This document shows, one piece after another, positions 15,537-16,140 of a stretch of 37,320 nt of DNA. How positions within the stretch are numbered: position 1 is the first letter of the stretch; the number at the start of each line of letters is the position of its first letter. Origin of the DNA: a virus. Taxonomy: Duplodnaviria > Heunggongvirae > Uroviricota > Caudoviricetes. Both the position numbers and the translations under genes were made by a program. The notes under the pieces were generated by a model. The model saw only the letters and a list, made by a program, of their open reading frames with translations, searched no databases and had not been told where the DNA came from. The stretch spans positions 1 through 37,320 of IMG/VR virus record IMGVR_UViG_2617270964_000016. One strand, given 5' to 3'.

Positions 15537-15567
15537 ATGATTTTCGCCGAAGATGGCGACATGATTC

Positions 15568-15597
15568 TTGCATTTTTCAAAAAATATGGTTAGGATT
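15568..15597 (+). promoter_or_regulatory. Candidate Q-dependent late promoter (PR'-like): -35 TTGCAT, 17-nt spacer, -10 TAGGAT
   Basis: Sequence match only; located 30 bp after the Q stop in an AT-rich region. Confidence 0.25.
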
Positions 15598-15643
15598 CTC
15601 CTAACGATGGGCTTTGTGTGTCTACCGTTGATAATCTTCTTGA

Positions 15644-15667
15644 ACCCGCCATCGAGCGGGTTTTTTG
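15644..15667 (+). terminator. tR'-like intrinsic terminator (ACCCGC-catcga-GCGGGT + TTTTTT)
   Basis: Seen directly, about 50-70 nt downstream of the candidate late promoter, as in lambdoid 6S-RNA/tR' arrangements. Confidence 0.5.
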
Positions 15668-15737
15668 TGCTCAAATTTCGAATAATGATTTGGTTATGCT
15701 ATGTATTTATTTCCTTACTTACTGAGGGAGTGATGCA

Positions 15738-15905
15738 ATGAGCAATACAAGATGTAGTAATGAAAGTTGCAATAAAGAGTTTATTTATTGGGAGCATAGT
15801 GGAGGCTATCCAGGAGGAAAGGATAAAGAGCCAATTATTTGCCCTTACTGTGGCCACACAAACGGTTATGAAATGACCAGTGGATTGATTTCCAGTAAAA
15901 AAATA
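15738..15905 (+). CDS. Small zinc-ribbon-like protein (55 aa, two CxxC pairs)
   Basis: Strong GAGGGAG Shine-Dalgarno 7 nt before ATG 15738. MSNTRCSNESCNKEFIYWEHSGGYPGGKDKEPIICPYCGHTNGYEMTSGLISSKK. AT-rich; followed by two hairpin + T-run structures (about 15927-15958 and 16005-16030). Confidence 0.35.
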
Positions 15906-16140
15906 GAAGAACAGTAGTATTCATATCTGTCTAGCCCTGGTATTTGCTGGGGCTTTTTGTTGCCTTCGCCTGATGAATTGACATTGCTTAACCCTCTGTT
16001 GTCAGCCATATGCTGGCTTTTTTATTCAAGGCTTGCGGGGAGCATCAACTCCGTGCTTTGTCGTTAAATTAACCCGTGAGCCTGCATTCTGACATTTAAC
16101 GTCCCGGCCTTTTGTCGGCGGCGAAACATTGGCTATTCAT

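Follow-up and report, generated by a model that had tools for sequence, protein, structure and literature searches.

Between the antiterminator gene Q and the holin gene of a tailed-phage prophage (IMG/VR record IMGVR_UViG_2617270964_000016, Caudoviricetes, positions 1 to 37,320, a stretch of 37,320 nucleotides (nt) called the window below) lies a small gene for a predicted four-cysteine (Cys4) zinc-ribbon protein of 59 amino acids (aa), whose family has a specific genomic link to restriction enzymes. We class it as a late-leader moron and restriction-linked accessory gene, and its product is a member of no named protein family. We tentatively propose that the prophage moron supplies a small binding partner that may modulate ATP-dependent restriction enzymes, a role that we consider quite possible, if somewhat short of probable. 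A sequence-only reading of this DNA had described a well-signalled open reading frame (ORF) with a GAGGGAG Shine-Dalgarno sequence and an uncharacterised zinc-ribbon product, a description that we uphold; the mosaic of three modules in which the gene lies, the promoter-like element and terminator of its own cassette, and the homologues embedded in Type I restriction operons are additions of the present analysis. The gene and its ribosome-binding signal are located as follows:

15724..15730, + strand: Shine-Dalgarno sequence GAGGGAG, read from the sequence, 7 nt before the ATG

15738..15917, + strand: gene for the 59-aa Cys4 zinc-ribbon protein (MSNTRC...KIEEQ), annotated as WP_023154804.1

The substitution pattern indicates that the ORF is a genuine gene under strong purifying selection, because synonymous sites are saturated while the non-synonymous distance (dN) stays low. 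Between the window copy and diverged prophage copies, about 25-28 of about 31 synonymous sites differ at a dN of 0.07-0.17, and for a closer pair (L010 and L014) the ratio of non-synonymous to synonymous change (dN/dS) is 0.037. The sequence-only reading had named a lack of protein-level conservation beforehand as what would refute the gene, and conservation is what these comparisons returned. Overlapping minus-strand ORFs (e.g. 15699-15857) were considered and rejected, as the substitution pattern fits the plus-strand frame. A purine-rich Shine-Dalgarno sequence stands at the same position in all prophage homologues. The product measures 59 aa rather than the 55 aa first given, and the gene, initially thought to fall below standard annotation thresholds, is in fact called by the Prokaryotic Genome Annotation Pipeline (PGAP) of NCBI as WP_023154804.1, 'hypothetical protein', the identical protein being recorded from at least 999 contigs and never named.

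The protein is predicted to be a zinc-binding Cys4 ribbon, and the family to which it belongs is widespread and unnamed. Among 1.84 billion representative proteins, a profile search recovered 149 clusters at E<=1e-3, nearly all of 53-75 aa, with homologues at 30-60% identity across Firmicutes, Proteobacteria, Verrucomicrobia and other phyla. Among 76 diverse members, M1, C6, C11, C35, P36 and C38 are invariant, and E31 (93%), G26 (88%), T47 (84%), P25 (81%), G49 (78%) and K28 (72%) are strongly conserved, giving the family motif C-x2/4-C ... F ... PGGK-x2-E-x3-CPYCG-x6-8-MTSG. The cysteines of the window protein are C6-x4-C11 (CSNESC) and C35-x2-C38; the two CxxC pairs claimed earlier are thus half right, the second (CPYCGH) standing as described and the first being Cx4C, unlike the CxxC found there in most homologues. 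An AlphaFold model (mean predicted local distance difference test score, pLDDT, 84.7) shows a five-stranded all-beta zinc ribbon. The family has a median isoelectric point of 6.05, and the window copy, at 6.6 kDa, carries a net charge of -2, a near-neutral charge that fits neither DNA mimics nor the usual basic DNA-binding proteins. No family in Pfam, NCBIfam, PADLOC or PHROGs captures the members, which gave generic sub-threshold zinc-ribbon matches only; structure searches of the PDB and of viral models returned no significant neighbour, database names for the family are all 'hypothetical', and a literature search found no paper naming WP_023154804.1 or a small zinc ribbon within hsd operons. 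One natural fusion was observed, a 425-aa protein (P0129) that joins an N-terminal PIN_12 nuclease through a long helical linker to a C-terminal copy of the zinc ribbon, a layout which suggests that the ribbon can act as sensor or adaptor for a nuclease effector.

The link to restriction enzymes was read from loci that a degenerate DNA pattern for PGGKxxExxxCPYCG had picked out, 30 of them in species-representative genomes, 27 in viral contigs and 88 in metagenomes. Almost all of these loci encode family members. An alignment-based search of genome contigs (alignment A1) yielded no loci, and it was the degenerate pattern that found them. Gene calls in the fetched loci are simple ORF calls, save where the collections' own calls are cited. 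Within two genes of the family member, in 37 loci, Pfam neighbours comprised HsdR domains (8), GmrSD_N (5), HsdS (3) and serine recombinases (3), and PADLOC concurs, with REase_I in 8. An independent metagenome set gave 10 Type I-linked loci among 73 further ones. When members were collapsed at 90% identity, 15 of 64 family clusters lay inside or beside Type I genes, and 5 clusters were of the prophage type. With the zinc-ribbon gene written as X, the gene orders are hsdS-X-hsdR, hsdM-X-hsdS and hsdR-X, commonly with overlaps of 4-8 nt that are upheld by the collections' independent gene calls; one locus has the Type III order mod-res-X-GmrSD, and another reads hsdR-YgjP-X. Two of the phage protein's closest cellular relatives (P0164, 55%; P0157, 51%) are encoded within hsd operons. 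Pairwise identity among the adjacent HsdR proteins is 21-100%, and values as low as 21% mean that the linkage does not reflect one clonal island. Genomes hold roughly one Type I system each, so that well under 1% of random 8-kb pieces would be expected to include such a system.

Other genes recur around the family as well, among them AbiEi/AbiEii, RloB/AAA_21 and a WYL regulator. The Firmicutes context consists of a divergent Xre-type helix-turn-helix (HTH) gene followed by three unknown genes. In Gammaproteobacteria (L024, L037, L039, L105, L132), a conserved 72-aa protein with no Pfam match (pattern MS.E...IGI...LVQTD.KWEQRKG.DTD...YDE.D..G.V...Y.V....SIYPPF) is encoded 9-16 nt after the zinc-ribbon gene, and the two genes possibly form a two-gene module; hsdM comes after the 72-aa gene in L105 and L039, with hsdS next in L105. 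The order hsdR-196aa-X-640aa was also seen, the 640-aa protein bearing HExxH and HTH motifs. Two Clostridia (L026 887-2791, L042 4544-6463) have hsdR, the zinc-ribbon gene and then a protein of ~640 aa; these two large proteins are 37% identical and share an HExxH metallopeptidase-like motif and a C-terminal HTH-like segment, with no Pfam match. Pfam searches of the recurrent unknown neighbours (72-aa; 157/196/240/255/334/549-aa) gave nothing informative.

We reasoned that a protein which is too small for catalysis, and which the prophage does not pair with a partner gene, works most plausibly by binding a protein of the host. The best candidate for this target is the Type I complex, given that family genes recur among hsdM, hsdS and hsdR and are translationally coupled to them. 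As no partner gene lies beside the prophage copy, its product would work in trans, on the enzyme encoded by the host chromosome. Several observations weigh against this proposal. The loci were sampled with a single DNA pattern, so the fractions above are no unbiased census; about three quarters of the family clusters have no nearby restriction gene in the DNA available; and the position within hsd operons varies, which fits a mobile embedded cassette equally well as a subunit. The 72-aa protein, the ~640-aa HExxH and HTH protein, and HTH_3/HTH_26 genes are recurrent partners too. In the prophage itself, the promoter-like element of the cassette (described below) is weak by consensus: its -10 sequence ends in A where the consensus has T, and a strict scan did not pick it up. 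Finally, a gene found within a Type I operon is often a defence system in its own right (bioRxiv 10.1101/2024.01.29.577857; PMC11411939).

This last point opens an alternative in which the family is an independent small defence, abortive-infection or toxin-antitoxin-type component and its restriction-operon embedding mere nesting of defence genes. The prophage copy would then be a lysogenic-conversion moron directed against other phages, or an orphan antitoxin-like protein, and the restriction enzyme would be untouched. We regard this explanation as the main rival to our proposal, though as rather less likely than not. Many genes nested in Type I, bacteriophage exclusion (BREX) and DISARM loci are separate systems, PrrC and TgvAB among them (bioRxiv 10.1101/2024.01.29.577857; PMC11411939), and the variable position inside hsd operons, the AbiEi/AbiEii, RloB/AAA_21 and WYL neighbours, the effector-plus-sensor layout of the PIN_12 fusion, the toxin-antitoxin-like look of the Gammaproteobacterial pair with its 72-aa partner 9-16 nt away, the moron layout of the prophage cassette with its own promoter-like element and terminator, and the confinement of the family to temperate phages and chromosomes would all suit it. 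Against it, a 59-aa ribbon lacking a prophage partner is very small for sensing and acting alone, no PADLOC model matches, the restriction neighbours are specifically of Types I, III and IV rather than a broad mix of defence families, and translational coupling with hsd genes is frequent. Comparison with the known embedded systems is likewise two-sided: PrrC, TgvAB and the Campylobacter Rlo proteins (RloF) occur in Type I operons, as the cellular homologues here do (PMC11411939; bioRxiv 10.1101/2024.01.29.577857), but they are large enzymes (ATPase-nucleases, GmrSD-like), whereas this family is a ribbon of 55-70 aa without a catalytic domain, and the window copy, unlike their genes, lies in a prophage late leader and not in an hsd operon.

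The specific tie to Type I operons is also what would be expected if the protein were a phage factor of the classical kind that counters restriction or enhances modification, comparable in function to lambda Ral or to Lar from the Rac prophage. Made before the other late proteins, it would shut down Type I restriction by the host or promote de novo methylation, with progeny DNA protected as a result, and the copies in cellular genomes would serve hsd operons as integral controllers that alleviate restriction. Small phage proteins do act on Type I enzymes: Lar and Ral are reported to alleviate Type I restriction and to enhance modification. Lar/RalR (PF14354, phrog_6422) and Ral are, like the window protein, prophage-encoded and about 60-66 aa long (lambda Ral about 66 aa), and Lar/RalR, whose sequence we read, is a 64-aa Cys4 zinc protein. 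Weak PHROG matches to 'Lar-like restriction alleviation protein' were obtained for the window protein (E 0.002) and for 6 of the 76 members (best E 5e-5), and the corresponding slot of an Stx2c phage that shares this Q is occupied by a DNA methylase, a further means of protecting progeny DNA. Membership in Lar/RalR was examined and rejected: profile comparison with hhalign gave a probability of 14% with only the CPxCG knuckle aligned, Pfam does not report PF14354, and the zinc-knuckle order is reversed, Lar having its CPFCG knuckle first. The genes are also placed differently, those for Lar and Ral in early or recombination regions and that of the window in the late leader, a late-operon position that comes too late for protecting incoming DNA; we know of no Lar homologue inside hsd operons. 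The anti-restriction genes described so far are frequent on plasmids and in virulent phages, whereas this family has no match in 72,556 plasmids, searched for the leading-region context typical of such genes, and virtually none in 50,697 phage records. Nor is the protein acidic in the manner of the DNA mimics Ocr and ArdA, which are strongly acidic and widespread on plasmids and virulent phages, in contrast to a window protein of net charge -2 with no plasmid match. On balance, a classical anti-restriction factor appears distinctly unlikely to us.

Whatever the function of its product, the gene lies in an interval bordered by two readily identified genes:

14784..15536, + strand: antiterminator Q gene, 250 aa, the upstream border (PF03589, E 3.8e-54; phrog_127, E 9.9e-109)

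16141..16446, + strand: LydA-type holin gene, the downstream border (PF16083, E 8.2e-22; phrog_785), with the ATG at 16141 being the PGAP start

The longest ORF of the holin opens at TTG 16129, as against ATG 16141 in the NCBI annotation, and the Q-to-holin interval measures 592-604 bp depending on the holin start; downstream, the gene order is LydA-type holin, lysozyme and Rz-like genes. The description of some 600 bp of AT-rich DNA between the Q stop (15536) and the holin (16129 or 16141) is accurate, the G+C content of 15500-16100 being 0.375-0.43 versus 0.48-0.57 in both flanks. Eight terminator-like sites were found in 15300-16400 versus 1.0 +/- 1.2 in shuffles, and a hairpin with a T run occurs at three places (15642-15666, 15933-15959 and 16001-16023, the hairpins themselves spanning 15642-15663, 15933-15954 and 16001-16017; fold z scores of -2.8, -3.4 and -2.3 versus shuffled sequence), the last two corresponding to further hairpin structures that had been noticed in the initial reading. 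A search of 15000-17000 for transfer RNAs (tRNAs) found none, and Rfam gave chance-level matches only in the region (Trp_leader, E 0.29; MicX, E 0.41).

Judged by its recurrence in other genomes, the 592-bp interval appears to be a mosaic late-operon leader of three modules, with a moron cassette placed just after the tR'-type terminator. The first module comprises a predicted Q-linked late promoter, a leader of ~64 nt and the tR' terminator; the second, the cassette (about 15677-15959), holds a promoter-like element, the Shine-Dalgarno sequence, the ORF and its own terminator; the third is a holin-linked leader fragment carrying the third terminator. Their elements are:

15544..15559, + strand: hairpin/inverted repeat TCGCC-GAAGAT-GGCGA without a T run, 8 nt past the Q stop and upstream of the -35 hexamer

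15568..15611, + strand: putative PR'-type late promoter and initial transcribed region, with -35 TTGCAT (15568-15573), a 17-nt spacer and -10 TAGGAT (15591-15596)

15642..15666, + strand: tR'-type intrinsic terminator, with an 8-bp G+C-rich stem, a 6-nt loop and T6 (-12.4 kcal/mol, z -2.76)

15677..15705, + strand: candidate promoter-like element of the cassette, with TTCGAA (15677-15682), 17 nt and TG-c-TATGTA (15697-15705), of the extended -10 type

15933..15959, + strand: intrinsic terminator of the cassette, with a 9-bp stem, a 4-nt loop and TTTTT (-13.2 kcal/mol, z -3.44, 0/200 shuffles as stable)

15961..16128, + strand: holin-linked leader module, with a hairpin and T6 at 16001-16023 and a further hairpin at 16034-16055

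The entire 592 bp is present in just 15 of 5426 complete E. coli genomes, and the flanking modules occur separately. Positions 15537-15629 recur at 96-97% identity only beside the same Q (phage SKA5 and Salmonella phage 118970_sal3), while the 168 bp of 15961-16128 (L002 3001-3168) have 92% identical copies in about 950 E. coli genomes, with the same holin and a different Q. In DLP12-like prophages this third module is part of the late leader, where it follows their own tR' and adds a second terminator. Intra-operon terminators of this kind are common and unexplained (PMC8022706).

The first module agrees with the late-operon leader, with PR'-type promoter and tR'-type terminator, that had been predicted from the sequence, as far as conservation in Q relatives and analogy can tell. 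An alignment (A4) of the post-Q DNA of six phages whose Q proteins are related shows no variation in TTGCA, in part of the -10 hexamer or in AACGATGGG, the divergent Q relative L065 included; the 17-nt spacer is conserved as well, and the -10 hexamer varies as TAAGAT or TAAATT (the latter in L065). AACGATGGG lies at 15603-15611, 7 nt past the -10 hexamer, with the predicted +1 near 15603. The two hexamers match the consensus at 3/6 and 4/6 positions, and a strict consensus scan called no promoter on the plus strand, so that the identification of PR' rests on conservation and analogy. In lambda, pR' is a constitutive promoter with a -10-like pause element at +1 to +6 and a tR' that ends a short leader RNA. 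AACGATGGG presumably corresponds to the sigma-70-dependent pause element of lambda pR', which it resembles, and its pause function is assumed from lambda. The same logic of promoter, pause and terminator is described for the Q-stx region (PMC6266700). In the window, tR' would terminate a leader RNA of ~64 nt; its hairpin holds a constant position in all Q relatives, its stem is kept through compensatory changes, and homology among same-Q phages stops right after its T run (A4). Five same-Q phages (SKA5, sal3, Tritos, the window and the Stx2c phage) keep the hairpin at 15544-15559 with a few single-base changes, and it cannot be aligned in the divergent L065. It travels with the Q module and may serve to bind Q or to protect an RNA end. 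An inverted repeat with two perfectly matched 7-bp arms, GTTAGGA-TTC-TCCTAAC (15589-15605), was also observed across the -10 hexamer and the predicted PR' start, in the window, SKA5 and sal3 and not in the Tritos or Stx2c variants of the promoter.

The second module looks like a classical moron, with a candidate extended -10 promoter, the gene and a terminator. In three prophage sub-lineages that are otherwise unalignable upstream, TGnTAT is invariant at 31-32 nt before the ATG, and TTCG is kept too, with the 17-nt spacing. Every prophage copy is preceded by the tR'-type terminator of its phage and followed by a terminator of its own, in which stem changes compensate one another and the GGGGCTTTTT-type 3' arm does not vary. 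With its own promoter-like element and terminator, expression of the gene need not depend on Q alone. Lambdoid morons (lambda bor and lom; HK97/HK022) are likewise present or absent among related phages, lower in G+C and followed by an intrinsic terminator; compared with them, the cassette promoter is inferred from conservation and is a weak consensus match.

Phage copies always lie directly after Q, which raises the alternative that the protein is a nucleic-acid- or RNA-polymerase-binding regulator of late expression, Ogr/Delta-like, or a translational regulator, the post-Q site reflecting a role in late transcription or lysis timing. Beyond the constant position between Q and the lysis genes, its supports are a best, non-significant viral structural neighbour that is an Ogr/Delta-like zinc finger protein (E 1.3; template modelling (TM) score 0.55) and matches of three members to a 'translational regulator' PHROG at E about 2e-4. 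No structural or sequence similarity of the window protein to the Ogr/Delta late activators is significant, its near-neutral charge speaks against such a function, and homologues inside hsd operons of non-phage DNA would be hard to explain. Furthermore, the upstream Q proteins belong to three Pfam-distinct, unrelated families (PF03589, PF06323 and PF06530/DUF1133), and the lysis cassettes downstream differ, so the gene is tied to no single late machinery; a fourth upstream protein type (221 aa) matches no family, and the holins downstream of the gene differ too. We therefore regard a late-expression regulator as very improbable.

A further argument against that regulator is that the slot between Q and lysis genes appears, from the same-Q phages compared, to be a general cargo site holding unrelated genes, which bears out its earlier description as a site for cargo. 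Where the same Q (94-99% identical) occurs in SKA5, 118970_sal3, Tritos and Stx2c phages, different genes come after it: an unrelated 85-aa ORF in SKA5 and 118970_sal3, cspB in Tritos, and in the Stx2c phage (L171 4534-6868) a lipoprotein-like ORF, a 75-aa ORF, an N6/N4 DNA methylase (PF01555, E 4.7e-44), tRNA-Met and tRNA-Arg. The zinc-ribbon gene shares with the lambdoid cargo already known (stx, tRNAs, DNA methylase, cspB) the insertion slot after PR'/tR' and before the holin (PMC6266700; PMC8022706), and like that cargo would be read through by Q-modified polymerase; unlike it, it belongs to a different, uncharacterised family and has its own promoter-like element and terminator. A tRNA-Thr was seen near the zinc-ribbon gene in two loci (L014 and L058).

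Klebsiella phage Kp4864-1 and many contigs from IMG/VR and from metagenomes carry prophage homologues that are 78-88% identical at the protein level. The family has no match in the plasmid set, and in the 50,697 phage records it is represented by one temperate Klebsiella phage, with two weak matches (31% identity, E 0.06) in unverified wastewater contigs labelled Listeria phage; members were found in temperate phages and chromosomes only. Two Logan assemblies (L010 and L011) contain a degraded prophage that keeps Q and the cassette without holin or endolysin, followed by an Rz-like fragment and then a DUF4145 gene; their tailspike and terminase genes are of the Sf6/P22 type.

Returning to the proposal that the protein is a binding partner of restriction enzymes, its course would run as follows. 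In the lysogen, the promoter-like element of the cassette and leakage through tR' would give weak transcription of the gene, and the two terminators after it would shield the lysis genes. On induction, Q would make RNA polymerase terminator-resistant, and the gene would be highly transcribed as the first late gene. The near-neutral 6.6-kDa protein would then probably bind an ATP-dependent restriction complex of the HsdR/HsdM/HsdS type and alter restriction or modification. As to direction, an accessory on the side of the host or lysogen seems to us slightly more likely than a classical anti-restriction factor, given the moron layout and the lack of family members on plasmids and in virulent phages. 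The Ral and Lar precedents, together with the DNA methylase in the same slot of the Stx2c phage, favour alleviation of restriction or enhancement of modification for progeny DNA. In a bolder form, which we put forward as speculative and rather unlikely as a whole, the family would comprise hitherto unrecognised small zinc-ribbon proteins that form part of ATP-dependent restriction enzymes (Type I, perhaps Type III) or control them, captured by lambdoid prophages and put at the head of the late operon to reprogramme host restriction and modification when resident or induced, a convergent counterpart of Ral and Lar of cellular hsd-operon origin.

Type I enzymes have long been studied as three-subunit machines. 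A small fourth protein recurring in their operons across phyla would, if true, offer a new handle on restriction control and evasion, and the same family is carried by E. coli, Klebsiella and related prophages. The gene is tiny, easily cloned and present in ordinary E. coli lysogens, so classical plating assays can test the idea directly. Hundreds of 'hypothetical protein' entries gain a name-worthy family, and a slot known for Shiga toxin genes gains a further non-toxin type of cargo. Should the protein prove to be an unrelated small defence or toxin-antitoxin component, the family would still be an unannotated one that marks restriction and defence loci.

Elsewhere in the window, in the early prophage region, two adjacent plus-strand RNAs scored above the Rfam gathering threshold, isrK (61.2 bits) at 9583-9659 and C4 antisense RNA (80.7 bits) at 9684-9771, a pair which suggests a P1/P7-type antisense-RNA module for immunity or antirepressor control.

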